Positions 12,347-21,204 of a DNA stretch of 64,000 nt are shown here, in pieces. Below the pieces are notes generated by a model. That model was not told the DNA's origin and made no database searches. It worked only from the letters and a program-made list of their open reading frames with translations. The stretch comes from an uncultured Solirubrobacterales bacterium. Its GTDB lineage: Bacteria; Actinomycetota; Thermoleophilia; Solirubrobacterales; Solirubrobacteraceae. The stretch covers positions 5,891-69,890 of the forward strand of contig CAVUST010000002.1 in the NCBI GenBank assembly GCA_963744245.1. The letters are read 5' to 3'. How positions within the stretch are numbered: position 1 is the first letter of the stretch; every line of letters begins with the position of its first letter. A program made the translations under genes and the position numbers.

Positions 12347-13770
12347 GGTCGCGTCCCTTCAGCCGGGGGAATTGAATAGACGGGCGTAGCCTCCGCTTTG
12401 ACCCTGAAGAAGTCGAAGATGGAGGTACGCCCGCATGGAGAAGGTAGTCCCGAGCGAGAGGTTCCGCTCTGAACTGGACGTGATGCTGGCCGGTGTTGGC
12501 GGGGAGGAGGACCCGATCGAGACGGTCGGTCGTCTCGGTGCCCGGCTGATCCTGCAGCAAGCGCTGGAGGACGAGGTCACCGAGTTTCTCGGCCGCCGGC
12601 GCTATGAGCGCGCCGGTGAGACGGTCAGTCACCGCAACGGCTATGAGAAAAGGACGGTCAAGACGACGAGCGGCGCGATGCGCTTGGAGCGCCCGAGGGT
12701 CCGTGACGCGAAGCGGCTCGGGTTCGAGAGCCGGATCCTCGGCAAGGGCGTCGCCCGTACCCACGCTTTGGAGTCGTTGGTGATCAGTGGGTTCCTCAGG
12801 GGCCTGTCGACGAGGGATGTCGAGGCGGCGCTGGAGGAGGTCTTCGAGGAGCCGATCGCCTCACGCTCGACGGTCTCGAGGATCTGTGAGGACACCCGCG
12901 AGCGATACCGGCAGTGGTGCCGCCGGCGCCTGGAGGCACACGACATCGTCTACCTGTTCCTGGATGCGATCTACCTGAAGTTGCGCCCCGACGACACACC
13001 CTCTGAGGGCGTCCTTGTCTGCTGGGGGGTGACGCTCGAGGGGCGGAAGATCCTGCTCGGATTGGCTCTCGGAAGCCGCGAGAGCTATGACGCGTGGCTC
13101 GCGTTCGCGCGCGACATGATCGACCGCGGGCTGCGCTCACCGGCGCTCGTGGTCGCGGACGGGGCACCGGGAATCTGGAAGGCGACCCGCGAGCTCTGGC
13201 CGCACGCGCTGGAGCAGCGTTGCACCGTCCACGCCCTCAGGAACGTCACCTCAAAGCTCCCGGAGCGCCACCACGCCGAGGTCAAGGCGCGCTGGTGGAA
13301 AGCGTTCGATGAGGCCCGCTCCCCGGGCGAGGTGACCCGCGAGCTGCAGGGCATCATCGTCGACTACAAGGCCGCCTACCCATCGGCGATGGCCGTCATC
13401 GAAACGGACCTTCCGGCCCTGGTCTCGCATCTACGGTTCCCGTCCGAGCACCGCAAGCGGATACGGACCACGAATCTCCTCGAGAGAACGTTCGTGGAGG
13501 TCCGCCGGCGCACCAAGGTCATCGGCCGCTTCCCCGGCGAGACCTCAGCGCTGTCTCTGATCTGGGCCGTGCTCGAGCTCTCCACCCGCGGCTGGAGAGG
13601 AGTGAAGATGAACCCCAAGACCGTCGCGGAGATCGAGCGGCTGCGCCGTCAGCTGCGCGAGGACCCAGCCCCACCCGTGACCGTCGACGCCGAGGAGGTG
13701 ATCGCCGCATAGGATCCGCAGCAAGCGGAGCTACGCCCCGGTGATTTCACCCGGGAACTGGGACGCGACC
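12347..13770 (+). mobile_element. IS256-family insertion sequence
   Basis: Terminal IR GGTCGCGTCCC / GGGACGCGACC; 8-bp TSD CGTGTTCG at 12339-12346 and 13771-13778. Confidence 0.93.
12435..13712 (+). CDS. IS256-family (Mutator) transposase
   Basis: YLFLDAIY, LVVADGAPG, QRCTVH and TTNLLER. Confidence 0.95.
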   Translation: MEKVVPSERFRSELDVMLAGVGGEEDPIETVGRLGARLILQQALEDEVTEFLGRRRYERAGETVSHRNGYEKRTVKTTSGAMRLERPRVRDAKRLGFESRILGKGVARTHALESLVISGFLRGLSTRDVEAALEEVFEEPIASRSTVSRICEDTRERYRQWCRRRLEAHDIVYLFLDAIYLKLRPDDTPSEGVLVCWGVTLEGRKILLGLALGSRESYDAWLAFARDMIDRGLRSPALVVADGAPGIWKATRELWPHALEQRCTVHALRNVTSKLPERHHAEVKARWWKAFDEARSPGEVTRELQGIIVDYKAAYPSAMAVIETDLPALVSHLRFPSEHRKRIRTTNLLERTFVEVRRRTKVIGRFPGETSALSLIWAVLELSTRGWRGVKMNPKTVAEIERLRRQLREDPAPPVTVDAEEVIAA

Positions 13771-15724: not shown

Positions 15725-15957
15725 CGGACACAGTACGTGGGCGCTAGCAACTTGCGGTCCTCGCCGATGAACAGTTCGCGTTCGGCGAGCTTGGCGAGGG
15801 CCAGTGCGACTCCGGGAAAACAGTACCGATTTGGTACCCGCATGATGCACTTGCGCTCCGCTTCCCGAGTCAAAAATCCCTCTGTCGCTTAGAGGTCGGA
15901 TTTGAGAAGCGCCGGTTTGTGTAGCTTTGCACCTGCTTGGCGCCCGGAACCCAGGCT

Positions 15958-16215
15958 CTACCGCGACCGGCCCCTCTTGCCATTCTCATGCCTCTCGGCC
16001 TCGCGCAGCAGCTCTGAGGCTGGGACGCCGAGCCCGTCCGCGAGCGCCCAGAGAGCGCGCACGCTGACATTGCGCTCGCCGCGCTCAGCATCCCCGACGT
16101 AGTTGGTCGTCAGGCCAGAGTGGTCGCCGAGGGCTTCCTGTGTGAGATCGCGCGCCTTGCGCAGCTCGCGCACGGCGTCGCCGAGGGCACGGTGTCTTGG
16201 GCTAAGTGGTGGCAC
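15958..16215 (-). CDS. XRE-family HTH regulator (start uncertain)
   Basis: ALGDAVRELRKARDLTQEALGDHSGLTTNYVGDAERGERNVS. Confidence 0.85.
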   Translation of the reverse strand: MPPLSPRHRALGDAVRELRKARDLTQEALGDHSGLTTNYVGDAERGERNVSVRALWALADGLGVPASELLREAERHENGKRGRSR

Positions 16216-16567
16216 CCCTGCACCCTCTCTGAGTGCCCCCTGTTCGTCCACCAACCATCAGGGTGTTTCAGTGCTACTGTCCACGCGCCCAATGTCACTT
16301 GCGAATGGCGCGCCGAACCCGCACGACGGTATCGGGGCCTCCAGCGCAGATGACCGAGGGCAATGCCCGCAGACAAGTTGGCCCCGGCGCAGGATTGCAG
16401 TCCCGCCCGGGGCCGTGACACAGGAGGTCTTATCTCCCATGCACGAGCAGCGTAGTCCAGAGAGGTCCGAGGATATCGCTCGACTTGATGGGGCGATCCT
16501 CGGGCTTCTCGCCAGCCCTGTCCAGCAGCGTCCTCTCTCATCCGTGGAGGTGGCCCATGAGGAGCGC

Positions 16568-16936
16568 ATGACGGACCCCCTGGAGGTCTCTGTCTCCCTC
16601 CCTCCTCCGAGCGTCTTCTGGCGCACAGGAGGCACCGAGCTGGGAGCGGCGATCAGGTCGCGCCGGCAGGCGCTCCAGCTAAGTATCGAGTTCCTTGCCG
16701 GCAAGGCAGGGATGCACCCAACGTATCTCTCTGGCATCGAGCGCGGCATCAGGAATCCGACCTGGGACAGGATCTCCGACCTGGCGGAAGTCCTCGGCGT
16801 GCCCGTCTCGACCCTGGCCTGTGAGGCTGAGGATCGCCGCATCAAGCAGGCGCTCAATGCCGCAGCCGTCAGCGCCTACCGCGCGGCCTGTGCCCGGCAC
16901 GGCCACGACGAGCACATGACACAGGGGAGCCGGTAG
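16568..16936 (+). CDS. XRE-family HTH regulator (start uncertain)
   Basis: ELGAAIRSRRQALQLSIEFLAGKAGMHPTYLSGIERGIRNPT. Confidence 0.85.
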   Translation: MTDPLEVSVSLPPPSVFWRTGGTELGAAIRSRRQALQLSIEFLAGKAGMHPTYLSGIERGIRNPTWDRISDLAEVLGVPVSTLACEAEDRRIKQALNAAAVSAYRAACARHGHDEHMTQGSR

Positions 16937-16938
16937 CC

Positions 16939-17178
16939 GTGGGCTTCGCCTATCCATCCAAGGAGTTCGGCCAGACCCCGCCGCCGGAGGATGGGAGCAT
17001 CGTCCCGTGCCCCACATGCGTCAAGGGCCAGCGGCGCATCGGACTCATCCACCTCATCGGGTGCCCTGACTGCCTGGGCTCGGGCGTGCAGGGGTATGGC
17101 TTCTCTGCTCTCTCGGTCTTCGAGGACTGGGTGGATGACCCTCCCTCGGATGGCGATGAGGCTGGTGAGGGTGGGTAG
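16939..17178 (+). CDS. Small Zn-ribbon-like protein
   Basis: CPTC...CPDCLGSG; GTG 2 bp after the XRE stop. Confidence 0.4.
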   Translation: MGFAYPSKEFGQTPPPEDGSIVPCPTCVKGQRRIGLIHLIGCPDCLGSGVQGYGFSALSVFEDWVDDPPSDGDEAGEGG

Positions 17179-17312
17179 TGAAGCGACTTCGCCTTACCAG
17201 CCCCATCACTACGTCGTAGGCTGTGTGCTGGGGGTCATCGGCATGTGGGATCGGGACGGCCAACCCACATCAGCGGGCGTCCCTGTCCTGCGGTCCTGGG
17301 CTATGGTGCCGA

Positions 17313-17522
17313 TCACCATGCCGCAGCGAAGCGCCTGAGCCTTGAGACCCATTCCTCCACATTCTCGACATCCCTGCGAAACGAGGCTCTAGCAGCCTCA
17401 CGATCCATGTTCTGGCCCATGTACTCGTCATCATCGCAACGGGCCAAGTTCGCCCGGCAGTCCTCCGCCATGCGCTCGTGCCGCACGATCTCCTCTTCTA
17501 GCTGCTCCTTTGAGCTGAACAT
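17313..17522 (-). CDS. Small charged coiled-coil hypothetical protein
   Basis: 69 aa with an amphipathic helical pattern. Confidence 0.45.
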   Translation of the reverse strand: MFSSKEQLEEEIVRHERMAEDCRANLARCDDDEYMGQNMDREAARASFRRDVENVEEWVSRLRRFAAAW

Positions 17523-17562
17523 GCTTCGACGGTAGTACCGTCACGCTGATGCTGAGGCTTTT

Positions 17563-18036
17563 GTGCCGTTCACTGACTACCTGGGAAGGCAATGGCGAGT
17601 CGCCCGAGTCGCTGACATCCCGTTCCCGACCTCCGTCGGCGGCAACACGACCGGATGCCCACTTGACGACATCTGCAAACGCGCCTACGCCAAGAAGGGC
17701 GAAAATGTCACGAGCAAGGAAGTCATAGCCTCGCTCACGGCCCGGCGATCAGAGGTGAGGGCCTGCTGGCATCACCGCTTCACCCGTGCTGAGCATCTGT
17801 ATGTGGCGGAGCTATCATGCTGGTTCGTTGAGCATGAAGTCGAGCCATATAGTGATAGCTTCGTGCCCGTCGTCAAGAGGGACGGCTTCTCGGTCGAGGT
17901 CCAGCACGCCGTCCAAGAGCTCTTTGAGTACCCTCTCCGCTGGTCATTCATCAAGGGCGGAGCCCTCCGCAACGGTCGCCACAAGCTATGCGCTCTGAAG
18001 GCGAACAGAATACCCCGCGTCGCCGTCAGGATATGA
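17563..18036 (+). CDS. Hypothetical protein with a weak ParB/Srx-like C-terminal motif
   Basis: LRNGRHKLCALKANRIPRVAV resembles DGxHRxxA...VPV. Confidence 0.5.
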   Translation: MPFTDYLGRQWRVARVADIPFPTSVGGNTTGCPLDDICKRAYAKKGENVTSKEVIASLTARRSEVRACWHHRFTRAEHLYVAELSCWFVEHEVEPYSDSFVPVVKRDGFSVEVQHAVQELFEYPLRWSFIKGGALRNGRHKLCALKANRIPRVAVRI

Positions 18037-18060
18037 GGTGAGAGGGGAAGCGTGAAGGCG

Positions 18061-19260
18061 TTACTCAGTTGTCTGGCTGAGTTTCTGCTGGAGCGACCTC
18101 ACGTAGTATTTGAATAGTGGCTCGTTAAACTTGTACAACCCGCGCGATACGGAAACCACAATGCCGAGCTTCTTCAGCGTTGTGATAAACGATGTGAGCG
18201 TTGCGCTTGGAAACGGCAGCTTCTCCTCAATAAACCTCAGAGGTACGTTTTCCTCTGGATACTCACTCATCGCAATCGCGATACTTCTCTTTGTGCCTTC
18301 GCCCGTGAGATCCCATAGTTTCTCCAGGTAGTCGCGCTGGTCCGCGATGACCACGTTGATACCCGCAATGAGGGATTCCTCGTTGATCTTGGCTTCCTCT
18401 GTCGCGTCAAAGGCAGCAGAGCCCAGCAGGTGGATCTGGTTCGGAATACCTCTCGCCAGCCTCGCGATTTCCGCAGCAACGGTGGCTTCAATGCTCACAT
18501 GACTATCGTTGAGAGCGCGATCTATCACGCCGAGCGATTCCATGCTGTCCAAAGGCATGAGCTTGATTTTCTTGAAGATCCGCGGCACGGATTGATGGCC
18601 CTGCTTTAGCGTCTCCTCAACCGTACTGATGCCCACTGGCAGCAAGATAACGCTCTCCAGTTCCCTCTTAGTCATCATTTCTGTCACCGTCTTGAAGAAG
18701 GTCGGTACGCCGTAATTGCTCGCAATTCTGTCTAGCTCATCGATCACGAGCAGAATGCCATCAAAATGGTCCGACAGCTTGTCCCATGCCTCACAGAGCT
18801 GGTCAATAAAAGAGGCAACTAGATCCTGAGGTGGCCTGGCAGCGTCGTCCAATTCGAATTTCAGCAACTTGAGATCAATCGTCGTCTTGACCTTTAGCGA
18901 AGCCGCCTTCTTTTGCTGTGCTCTATCCAACTCGTCCAGAAGGCCATTTACGATATCGATGATGCTGTGCCCGTCCTGCGCCGTATATTCCGCGACGACG
19001 AAGTTAAAGTGAAGTCCCTCGTATTCATGCGGCAGCAGACTCAAGTAACTCGTCTCACCCCGAGCTATCCCTTGCAGCTGGCTAGACAGAGAACTCTTGC
19101 CTACGCCGCTATCTCCGGTTATAAGGCCATGACGCACATTACCGTGGGCCGCCTGATGCAATAGCCGAGCACCCTCTTCAAGCTGTGCTCGCCTGCCCGA
19201 GAATAGCTCGGGATTACGAAGAATCTTTCCTGGTGAGAACGGGTTGGGACGAAGGGCCAT
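18061..19260 (-). CDS. STAND/AAA ATPase with C-terminal winged helix, no effector domain seen
   Basis: NPF.PG..FSGR N-terminus, Walker A GDSGVGKS, Walker B LLVIDELD; lower GC than flanks. Confidence 0.88.
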   Translation of the reverse strand: MALRPNPFSPGKILRNPELFSGRRAQLEEGARLLHQAAHGNVRHGLITGDSGVGKSSLSSQLQGIARGETSYLSLLPHEYEGLHFNFVVAEYTAQDGHSIIDIVNGLLDELDRAQQKKAASLKVKTTIDLKLLKFELDDAARPPQDLVASFIDQLCEAWDKLSDHFDGILLVIDELDRIASNYGVPTFFKTVTEMMTKRELESVILLPVGISTVEETLKQGHQSVPRIFKKIKLMPLDSMESLGVIDRALNDSHVSIEATVAAEIARLARGIPNQIHLLGSAAFDATEEAKINEESLIAGINVVIADQRDYLEKLWDLTGEGTKRSIAIAMSEYPEENVPLRFIEEKLPFPSATLTSFITTLKKLGIVVSVSRGLYKFNEPLFKYYVRSLQQKLSQTTE

Positions 19261-19311
19261 TAGACTATCTCGACTATAGAGCGGCAAATCCGAGCACGCG
19301 GGAATAACCCC

Positions 19312-19604
19312 TTCACGACTTTTGGCGATGCGCTCTCTGACAGGGGAGAGATCGCGTTTGCGACTCCAGGCGGCCCTTGAGTTAGCGGTCTGAGACGTTG
19401 TTCACGACTTTCGGCGATTCGACACAGATCTTCGAAATCGCCCTGTTGACGGGGGTTTTGCGGAGACGCCGCGCTATGGGCAAACCGTGGGCAAGGAGTT
19501 TACGACTTTTGGCGACACATCACGAGCCGAGCCGGCGAGTGCTTTACGACTTCCGGCGACACATCACGAGCGGTTGCGGATGGGCACTTTACGACTTTTG
19601 GCGA
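19312..19604. repeat. Five direct 17-bp repeats TTYACGACTTYYGGCGA
   Basis: Copies at 19312, 19401, 19499, 19543 and 19588. Confidence 0.9.
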
Positions 19605-19729
19605 CGCGTTGGAAGTGGCTCATAAATGTGGAACATGGGTGGCCCCAACGGCTGGGGTGAGGGACAGGATCACTAGCATGCCGTCATCTCTCAACTCGGC
19701 AGAGCACACTATAAGAATGGTGATTGCCA

Positions 19730-21034
19730 CTACGGCCTGAGTGACGGCATTCCTTCGGGGTCCGTCACACCACGCCTCTGCGCCAGCGGATGACCATGAT
19801 TGACGAGAAGCCACTCGCGGATTCGCTCGGCGTACTCGCGCTCGTCAGAGAGGTCGTTTAGGTGAAGGGCCATCAGGAGGAGTGCTCTGTCCAAGCGACC
19901 CTTGTTGGTGAATCGCCCTGCCCGGTAGCTGATCCTCGTGCGCAGCCAGTTGAGGTTCTGCTCCAAGGCGCCGGTCGCCCACGGGTTGGCCGGGTTGGGC
20001 CACGATGACCGCCGTTCGAGCTGTGGCGTCACGACCCGCTCTACCCCGCTCAGGTAGCTGGCGAGCTTCTTGCGCTGAGTGGGGTTCTGAATTGCCAGCC
20101 ATGCCCCCTTCATCTCATCGAAGCGCTTGACGGACGTGAAGGCCCTCTCGATCAGGTCGTAGGCTGGCGTCTCCGGTTGATCGAGCCCCAAGCCCTTCAG
20201 CTTCTCGTGACACCGCTTCTTCAAGTGGTGCTCGCAGTAATGCACCTCACTCTCGGGATAGACCTCGCCGACGGCTTTGACGAGCGATTTGCCCCGGTCA
20301 CAGACGATGCGCTCGGGTGTCCCCGTGAGCGAGCGCATGAAGCGCCCCCACGCTGGCGTCATGTCGCGCCGCTCGGGCACGGCTTCGAGGCGGAAGACGC
20401 GGATGACCCTGCGCTCGGCGTCCCAGCCCATGGCCGCCAGGATGCTGAAGGTGTGGCGTCCGCCGGGGACGCCCGTGTTGATGCGGAAGGGGACTTCATC
20501 GAAGAGGACGGAGCCCGACTCAGGCCAGGCGAAGTCGCGGTGGGGCTCATAGACGACAGGGCCGAAGACCTCGACCCAATCTGAGATGAGCTGCGCGTGG
20601 TGGGAGTAGCGCACTTCGTGCTTGTTGGCCTGTCTGCCACGTCTTGCGTGCTGGCGGGCGGCATGGGCGGCTTCCCGGTACGTGGCCCCTTCGCCGACGC
20701 GGATGAGGGCGCGGGCGATCTCGCGGATGGAGTAGAGGTGGTCACGCGCTCCCTGTGGCCCCTCTTGGGGCGAGTACATGCGCTCGCACTCATCGCAGAA
20801 GCCATCGTGGGTCATCTGCCTCGGCAGGACCTCGGAGAACTGGTGCGCCTTGTCCCCGTTCCCCGGCACGCACAGCCAGCGCGGCCTCTCGTGGCCCTCC
20901 GTGCCCTTCATCCCGTTCAGCCAGACCCGGCTGCCCTCATGTTCTGAACGTGGGCACTTCGGGCGCTGCGTCTCCTTCATCACGGCAGCCATGACGGACC
21001 TCCTTGTCCGAGTCTCGGCCTTCCAAGGGCTCAT
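19730..21034 (-). CDS. Mutator/MULE-like DDE transposase with N-terminal Zn-binding and HTH regions
   Basis: SVLFDE, IVCDRGKSLVKAVGEVYPESEVHYCEHH (D...C/DxxH) and GALEQ. Confidence 0.8.
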   Translation of the reverse strand: MSPWKAETRTRRSVMAAVMKETQRPKCPRSEHEGSRVWLNGMKGTEGHERPRWLCVPGNGDKAHQFSEVLPRQMTHDGFCDECERMYSPQEGPQGARDHLYSIREIARALIRVGEGATYREAAHAARQHARRGRQANKHEVRYSHHAQLISDWVEVFGPVVYEPHRDFAWPESGSVLFDEVPFRINTGVPGGRHTFSILAAMGWDAERRVIRVFRLEAVPERRDMTPAWGRFMRSLTGTPERIVCDRGKSLVKAVGEVYPESEVHYCEHHLKKRCHEKLKGLGLDQPETPAYDLIERAFTSVKRFDEMKGAWLAIQNPTQRKKLASYLSGVERVVTPQLERRSSWPNPANPWATGALEQNLNWLRTRISYRAGRFTNKGRLDRALLLMALHLNDLSDEREYAERIREWLLVNHGHPLAQRRGVTDPEGMPSLRP

Positions 21035-21130
21035 CTTGAGCTTAGGTCATGCTAGAGAGGGGCATGGACGCCAAATCCGACCTCTAAGCGACAGAGGCAA
21101 AAATCGCTAATTTGCAGGTATTTCCTCTGA

Positions 21131-21204
21131 TCGGGGAGACAGGATTTGAACCTGCGACCGCCCGGCCCCCAGCCGGGTGCGCTACCAGACTGCGCCACTC
21201 CCCG
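21131..21204 (-). tRNA. tRNA-Pro(GGG)
   Basis: CGGGGAG/CTCCCCG acceptor stem, CCCGG-CTGGGGG-CCGGG anticodon arm, GGTTCAAATCC T-loop. Confidence 0.95.

Follow-up and report, generated by a model that had tools for sequence, protein, structure and literature searches.

Transposases of the Mutator-like type in prokaryotes (p-MULT) belong to elements bounded by terminal inverted repeats (TIRs) of 18-39 bp and flanked by direct repeats of 8-9 bp (PMC3942029). These dimensions were reported by Guerillot et al. (2014, PMC3942029) for p-MULT 3 and 4 (TnGBS/ISLre2 and ISAzba1/ISKra4), in which Mutator-like transposases move insertion sequences (ISs) as well as passenger-carrying transposons, and some p-MULT lineages insert at a set spacing from a signal in the sequence. 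The IS256 family, with the solved structures of the ISCth4 transposase (6xg8 and 6xgx), is characterized by DDE (Asp-Asp-Glu) spacings of about 67 and 112 residues, a CxxH motif after the second Asp, an 8-bp target-site duplication (TSD), one transposase gene near one end and a presumed copy-out/paste-in transposition via a circle, while the IS1249 group comprises simple ISs of about 1.3 kb from actinobacterial hosts. Here, a 64,000-nt stretch of DNA from an uncultured Solirubrobacterales bacterium (assembly GCA_963744245.1, contig CAVUST010000002.1), hereafter the window, was analysed with respect to a 5219-bp transposon that lies beside a tRNA gene at positions 15879-21097 and that an initial annotation had described as a single-transposase, Mutator-like, cargo-carrying element of a distinct and possibly undescribed family.

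The proposed boundaries held under closer inspection (Table 1). The 26-bp TIRs were perfect and produced two matches in the window, with zero expected from 100 shuffles, and the 8-bp TSD was exact. The TIR sequence was found nowhere else in the 3.09-Mb genome, the two ends being its sole copies and the element single-copy. Aligned with G007, which is from the same genus, the joined left flank, one TSD copy and right flank revealed an unbroken empty site, with a match of 84.8% along 164 nt that span the junction and with the same tRNA-Pro(ggg) at its end, so that the entire 5.2 kb is absent from the orthologous site of this congener. Moreover, a family profile detected the transposase in 3 of the 61 sampled genomes of the genus, namely the present one, another with two copies and a third with a fragment. 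Both junctions were crossed with zero mismatches by contigs from a public soil run, which may be the assembly's own sample and does not count as independent support. The recent activity that had been suggested is consistent with the flawless TIRs and TSD, an undamaged transposase gene, the existence of an empty site and the patchy occurrence within the genus. Taken together, positions 15879-21097 very probably represent one intact, recently inserted cargo transposon with a single DDE transposase from a large family of the Mutator/IS256 superfamily.

Two further observations concern the insertion neighbourhood. Just left of the insertion site, a hairpin (window 15823-15850) composed of GGTACCAAATCGGTAC followed by TGTTTTC on the minus strand is conserved in G007 and is probably a terminator. 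On contig C1 of G007 (L092 vs L098), about 6.8 kb separate the empty site from the counterpart of the left-flank gene, which is encoded there on the opposite strand, and therefore the G007 neighbourhood is rearranged relative to this genome.

The transposase is encoded by a 434-residue open reading frame (ORF) that begins 38 bp inside the right end, the true start being probably Met15, where the homologues begin. Comparison of 27 homologues bore out the D-D-(C/D)xxH-E arrangement and the N-terminal Cys/His cluster read from the single sequence: D179, D246 and H270 were invariant, position 358 (E358 in the window protein) was always Glu or Asp, the spacings were 67 and 112 residues, the CxxH at 267-270 was embedded in a C-E-x-H-L motif whose Cys was kept in most homologues, and the residues C27/H32/C55/H64 and C80-x-x-C83 were nearly or fully invariant. 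Run against the PDB, the family profile retrieved the ISCth4 transposase of the IS256 family (E 7e-4), the alignment including the two Asp residues and the CxxH. Similarly, the five best PDB folds retrieved with an AlphaFold2 (AF2) model (mean predicted local distance difference test, pLDDT, 79.7) were all ISCth4 chains (E 3e-9 to 3e-6), the next-best fold, Hermes, being weaker by thousand-fold or more. Pfam matches of the window protein to MULE (PF10551; 20.8 bits vs a gathering threshold of 27.6) and Transposase_mut (PF00872; 14.2 bits vs 21) were below threshold, and MULE was matched by 18 of the 27 family members at E <= 0.01 (best 2.6e-6). Judged by sequence profile and predicted fold, the transposase is a member of the Mutator/IS256 superfamily, and the combination of a conserved DDE and CxxH on an ISCth4-like fold with a 26-bp TIR and an 8-bp TSD corresponds to the p-MULT description, in which the DDE triad sits on an RNase H-like fold that has an alpha-helical insertion and a C/D-x-x-H motif follows the second Asp. 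The view of a single-transposase, Mutator-like cargo carrier was thus sustained by the ISCth4 matches and by the presence of 5.2 kb inside one TSD that the congener lacks.

Within this superfamily, the transposase family sits outside every IS family model to which it was compared. NCBIfam models of IS6, IS256 and IS1249 matched the window protein with 14-17 bits against cut-offs of 125-300, the values being 15.9 bits vs 150 for IS256 (NF033543) and 14.6 bits vs 300 for IS1249 (NF033544), for which the best family members reached E 1e-6 and 1e-8, respectively. When the 27 members were examined one by one, IS256 and IS1249 were the only recurrent NCBIfam matches, the ISH6 model was matched by three of them at E >= 6e-4, and the ISKra4 and ISLre2 models by none. 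The window also harbours a true IS256-family IS at 12347-13770 (1424 bp; transposase at 12435-13712, 315.7 bits on NF033543), present in six genome copies with at least 99.8% identity and with 8-bp TSDs at two of the three copies inspected. BLASTP between its transposase and that of the cargo element gave E 0.35, which is not significant. The ends of the resident IS256 start with GGTCGCGTCCC (GGTCGCG) and those of the cargo element with CCTCTGTCGCTTAG, being of the type CC...TGTCGCTTAG rather than GG, and true IS1249 members, which score 434-484 bits on NF033544, have the TIR GGACAAAAAGTGTG and ends starting with GGACAAAAAGTG, unlike the element studied here. This element further departs from IS256 in its N-terminal Cys/His cluster, its sequence-selective targets and its clade with 2-8 kb of cargo; from TnGBS/ISLre2 and ISKra4 in its lack of conjugation genes; and from TnGBS in its use of a terminator-type motif (CTAG-N6-CTAG in the sister clade) instead of sites upstream of sigma-A promoters. 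The suggested distinctness of the family was therefore upheld by models and ends, while its being undescribed was not fully proven: it is probable on the basis of models, ends and pairwise comparison, made without ISfinder.

The first search retrieved 31 relatives, almost all of them unnamed, and GTDB genomes yielded 68 loci, mostly from metagenome-assembled genomes (MAGs) of Solirubrobacterales/Thermoleophilia and also from Kribbella, Cellulomonas and Actinotalea. An exhaustive profile search at E <= 1e-30 recovered 522 sequences, each representing one cluster at 50% identity, and 1254 such sequences when the limit was relaxed to E <= 1e-10. The family is a large one in soil Actinomycetota, mostly Thermoleophilia. 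Searches for the transposase in plasmids, phages and IMG/VR found nothing. Relatives with 30-40% identity are classical ISs of about 1.34-1.46 kb; for example, a 1.44-kb element is present in one MAG in at least 13 copies with about 99.5% identity, and two other genomes carry three IS copies each. Their ends (CCCCCAGTCGCAT, CCCCTCTCGCATAG and TGTCGCTTAGCGTGGAT) share the core TGTCGC(T/A)TAG with the window element and 8-bp TSDs are present as well, so that homologous transposases are indeed bounded by related TIRs, the opposite of the outcome that the initial annotation had named as refuting its proposal. The simple ISs (L006-L068; e.g. L025 9922-11265 and L015 9919-11265) were almost always inserted in CTAG-N6-CTAG or in variants such as CTAG-N6-TTAG, with the central 7-8 bp duplicated. 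The target of this sister clade is very clear and palindromic (CTA/G-N6-C/TAG), unlike that of the clade to which the window element belongs.

Among the elements with defined boundaries, all those with a transposase sharing 49% identity or more with that of the window are long (3.4-9.2 kb), the sizes being 3362 bp (L081), 3483 bp (L005), 3694 bp (L110), 4188 bp (L003), 4284 bp (L073), 4761 bp (L099), 4763 bp (L076), 5219 bp (window element), 6684 bp (L071) and 9227 bp (L004). Perfect TIRs of about 26-69 bp were found in all ten, and a perfect 8-bp TSD in nine, L076 being without it and the repeat of L099 being also readable as 9 bp. In a maximum-likelihood tree, the cargo carriers formed a single clade of 12 rows (support 100/99), apart from ten ISs of 1.34-1.45 kb. 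In each bounded member, 2-8 kb are taken up by variable cargo, examples of which are an NYN-domain gene, a gene for an 832-residue N6-methylase, LRAT and NOV_C genes and XRE regulators. Some modules nevertheless recur at the same relative position: a 79-residue ORF with a double CxxCxGxG motif is common to the window element, L073 and L099, whereas L003, L110 and L071 share a distal gene, and L071 and L076 a gene for 255 residues. Moreover, L003 (9866-14053) and L110 (8086-11779), which lie about 43 kb apart in the same genome (G065), have in common their transposase end (92%) and, at the distal side, a module of 1 kb (89%), and they differ in their central cargo. The clade thus looks like a lineage of small transposons exchanging passengers.

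Individual members of this clade presented additional traits. The closest relative of the window element, L076 (32-4794), has a transposase 77% identical and an identical 26-bp TIR, and it combines the lack of a TSD with the target motif on both flanks, a state expected after recombination between two copies or after insertion between two facing terminators. L004 (9878-19104) has 69-bp perfect ends and encodes the N6-adenine methylase-like protein, and its cargo holds nested transposase fragments of the IS5 family (DUF4096, DDE_Tnp_1). A gene for 423 residues beside L071 had been taken for a second transposase and proved to be unrelated.

The target of the cargo-carrying clade was characterized by reading each flank toward the element end. 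The motif C[TC]G[CG][AT][AT] was found on one side, exactly 20 or 21 nt from the junction, in 11 of 14 clade elements and in one outlier IS, as compared with a roughly estimated chance of 0.017 per element. In the profile of these half-sites (n=12), C at -20 and G at -18 never varied, positions -16 and -15 (A) and -10 (G) were conserved in 10-11, and positions -5 and -4 (T) in 11-12, giving the target consensus CCCTGCAAAT-N2-GG-N2-CTTTTG, whose T-run becomes the TSD. Of 13 half-sites with the motif, 6 form strong hairpins (-13 to -21 kcal/mol) followed by a T-run, as is typical of terminators, and the remaining ones keep the 5' half with poor pairing. The motif can stand at either element end. 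Insertions 23-25 nt past tRNA genes were seen for tRNA-Pro (window), tRNA-Val (L073, L077) and tRNA-Met (L030), and the motif with its T-run occurs at nine sites in this genome, four of them directly after tRNA genes. The target is therefore non-random: one element end abuts a T-run located 20-21 bp from the start of a terminator motif of the CCCTGCAAAT type, which in the window is the trailer of tRNA-Pro.

A shared trailer, GCCTGC(T/A)AAT-N7-8-TTTTGGG, was observed after tRNA-Lys, tRNA-Ala, tRNA-Asp and tRNA-Pro in the own genome of the element (e.g. G000:C1:944639, 911111 and 707609; window 21106-21130), and other tRNAs are followed by GC-rich hairpins and a T-run, some of them with an AAAT-type loop. 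This trailer may be a terminator form typical of the lineage. Two other explanations of the motif were discarded. As an outward extension of the TIR, CCTGCAAAT would be expected at both ends, and it was one-sided in all but one complete element; in addition, the matching stretch (CCTGGAAAT) was already present in the empty site of G007. As a promoter with TTGCAG as -35 box, it is followed by no -10 element and would drive antisense transcription of the tRNA.

Other mobile elements likewise spare genes by inserting into palindromes or terminators that lie between genes. Tn7 homes to the glmS terminator by means of the accessory target selector TnsD, and ISs that target repetitive extragenic palindromic sequences, such as ISPpu9, rely on IS110-type recombinases. 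Unlike in these systems, a single Mutator-like DDE protein is here the sole candidate selector. If IS256 and ISCth4 are taken as models, the 26-bp ends would be bound by the N-terminal part of this protein, with its zinc finger and helices. A circle in which the two ends abut would be copied out of the donor site and pasted in through 8-bp staggered target cuts (PMC7780238, PMC3942029), the cargo travelling along as a passenger.

The most far-reaching interpretation, put forward tentatively and with a somewhat less than even chance of being right, is that of an unnamed large family of the Mutator superfamily whose transposase picks its target by sequence. One clade would use CTAG-N6-CTAG, and the window clade would be specialized in transporting accessory genes and would seek out, as a safe harbour, the T-run in hairpins of CCCTGCAAAT-type terminators, tRNA trailers among them. 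The superfamily and the general mechanics are those already known from IS256 and p-MULT elements; what differs is the family (by the models applied), its ends, the sequence-selective targets and the cargo-specialized clade. Several observations weigh against the main explanation, that of an intact, recently inserted and target-selective cargo transposon from a family outside the IS models applied. The motif is absent at 3 of the 14 elements (L003, L110 and L079), it can lie on either side, and about half of the sites correspond to a generic strong terminator, so that the recognised feature may be the sequence or the hairpin. The genome has one copy, and no circle or excision/empty-site joint was seen among public-run contigs (assembled contigs, not reads), current activity being thus putative. 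Most relatives are known from MAGs and metagenome contigs, and the family may already be named, or filed as an IS256 subgroup, since no ISfinder comparison was made.

Concerning the cargo of the window element, the initial description was borne out in part: two divergent XRE genes (HTH_3), small ORFs, an ATPase (AAA_16) and an array of five repeats were found, and the ParB-like ORF and the strict STAND label were not retained. The second XRE ORF as listed overlaps the first, its real start being probably an internal Met (16292, 16439 or 16568), and its helix-turn-helix (HTH) part is common to element L081. The ORF of 79 residues gave no Pfam match and is 72-74% identical to the like-placed ORFs of L073 and L099, while that of 157 residues had no match in Pfam, NCBIfam or PADLOC and retrieved unnamed clusters only in an Atlas search. 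With regard to ParB, no small ORF had a Pfam or NCBIfam match and the Atlas lead was weak, at rank 25. The database gene call of the ATPase has 366 residues, implying a start near 19161, and its AF2 model (pLDDT 83.9) had as top folds the archaeal Walker-type ATPase PABY2304 and Orc1/Cdc6, matched in full length including the winged helix (Foldseek E 1e-10 to 6e-12 over residues 24-399 against Orc1/Cdc6 structures and models); the predicted fold accordingly appears to comprise the AAA+ base, the lid and the C-terminal winged helix of the Orc1/Cdc6 type. STAND models stayed below cut-off (nSTAND1 20.5 bits vs 27.1; NACHT 15.8 vs 26.7). The repeats are flanked by the start of the ATPase gene and the stop of the transposase gene, and the block formed by both ATPase and repeats has a GC content of 0.51-0.56 vs 0.61-0.68 elsewhere in the element. 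Seven homologues of the ATPase were detectable. In one of them (L119 56-2188; 38% identical), the ATPase gene is followed without a gap by that of a largely hydrophobic protein of 275 residues, of which there was no trace within the window, and a two-gene system may be the usual setting of this ATPase family. A defence-type or regulatory role of the ATPase is at least as likely as that of an initiator.

Table 1. Features of the cargo transposon and of its insertion site, in window coordinates (aa, amino acids; GC3, GC content at third codon positions).
Feature	Position	Strand	Remarks
TSD, left copy (CAAAAATC)	15871..15878		Homologous single copy in the G007 empty site
TIR, transposase-distal end (starts CCTCTGTCGCTTAG)	15879..15904	+	26/26 complementary to 21072-21097; core common to relatives
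XRE-type HTH regulator, 98 aa	15958..16254	-	Pfam HTH_3, E 2e-13
Second XRE-type HTH gene, divergent from the first	16103..16936	+	Pfam HTH_3, E 1e-12, residues 184-236
79-aa ORF, two CxxCxGxG motifs (DnaJ-type zinc finger)	16939..17178	+	Begins 3 nt past the XRE stop
157-aa ORF	17563..18036	+	Coding-like GC3
AAA+ ATPase, C-terminal winged helix, Orc1/Cdc6-like predicted fold	18061..19287	-	AAA_16, E 3e-12
Repeat array, five direct repeats of ~22 nt, core TTACGACTTTTGGCGA	19311..19608		Spacings 89, 98, 44, 45
DDE transposase, 434-aa ORF	19730..21034	-	Distant member of the Mutator/IS256 superfamily; likely start 20992
TIR, transposase-proximal end	21072..21097	-	Exact reverse complement of 15879-15904
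TSD, right copy (CAAAAATC)	21098..21105		Directly abuts the right TIR
Host target motif	21106..21130	-	Minus-strand tRNA-Pro trailer: CCTGCAAATTAGC, then the T-run that became the TSD
tRNA-Pro(ggg)	21131-21204	-	Host gene beside the element

Other explanations were weighed against an unnamed family with a cargo-carrying clade. The most serious one, still rather unlikely, holds that the transposase represents a divergent subgroup of the IS256 family that has already been catalogued, for instance near IS1249, with nothing new at the family level. IS256 and IS1249 were in fact the best weak matches, IS1249 proteins likewise have a Cys-rich N-terminus at their start, an hhalign comparison with IS1249 transposases reached a probability of 94.8%, and a homologue from Cellulomonas alba is labelled "Mutator family transposase" in UniRef. 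That alignment, however, covers just 70 columns around the second Asp, the same homologue is named "hypothetical protein" in RefSeq, and the low model scores, the differing TIRs and the lack of significant similarity to the resident IS256 transposase all speak for a separate family. Far less credible is a one-off composite, in which a simple IS and a stray second end would have trapped host DNA and no lineage of cargo transposons would exist. It would agree with the simple 1.3-1.5-kb ISs found in the sister lineages and with a cargo content unlike from element to element, but all ten bounded clade members carry cargo between perfect TIRs, with perfect 8-bp TSDs in nine, modules recur at equal relative positions in different elements, L003 and L110, from one genome, agree in both end modules and differ in the middle, and the whole 5.2 kb is absent from the empty site of the congener.

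The position of the element, 26 bp from the 3' end of tRNA-Pro, could also evoke a tRNA-linked integrative island mobilized by a site-specific recombinase. Nevertheless, there is no integrase gene within the element, the boundaries consist of inverted ends and an 8-bp duplication instead of a repeated tRNA 3' end, and relatives occupy sites other than tRNA genes, which makes this possibility negligible. Otherwise, the excised circle might also be a small replicon, with the ATPase as initiator acting on the five repeats as iterons, a proposal that adds to the transposon reading as an extra layer and is much less likely than it. TnGBS, for example, employs a plasmid-like replicase. For other Mutator-like elements of prokaryotes, circular forms that replicate have been documented or suggested (PMC3942029), and here phased repeats lie directly upstream of an ATPase, in the same low-GC block, whose predicted fold is similar in full length to archaeal Orc1/Cdc6, winged helix included. 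The ATPase, on the other hand, scored 19.4 bits on the Orc1/Cdc6 model TIGR02928 vs a cut-off of 181.3, the PDB structure closest to it belongs to a Walker-type ATPase from archaea whose role is unknown, the pairing of its homologue with a hydrophobic protein is more like a two-gene conflict system, the module is missing from other clade elements and the repeats could be ordinary operator sites, so that replication by this means appears improbable.

The Mutator-type transposase family to which the window element is assigned comprises hundreds of 50%-identity clusters, and since current annotation mostly calls its members hypothetical, mobile DNA in the MAGs of soil Actinomycetota is being overlooked, which a hidden Markov model of the family would remedy. 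Moreover, the existence of two sister clades that use one protein each and different sequence-defined targets could reveal how Mutator/IS256-type transposases select their targets, a question so far studied mainly for TnGBS. A compact single-protein transposon with a load of several kilobases and a preference for terminator trailers is also a possible insertion tool for high-GC Gram-positive bacteria. Finally, the changing cargo of these elements, which includes NYN and LRAT genes, a DNA methylase, XRE pairs and AAA+ ATPases, looks like a set of conflict or accessory genes, for whose spread the clade would provide a route.

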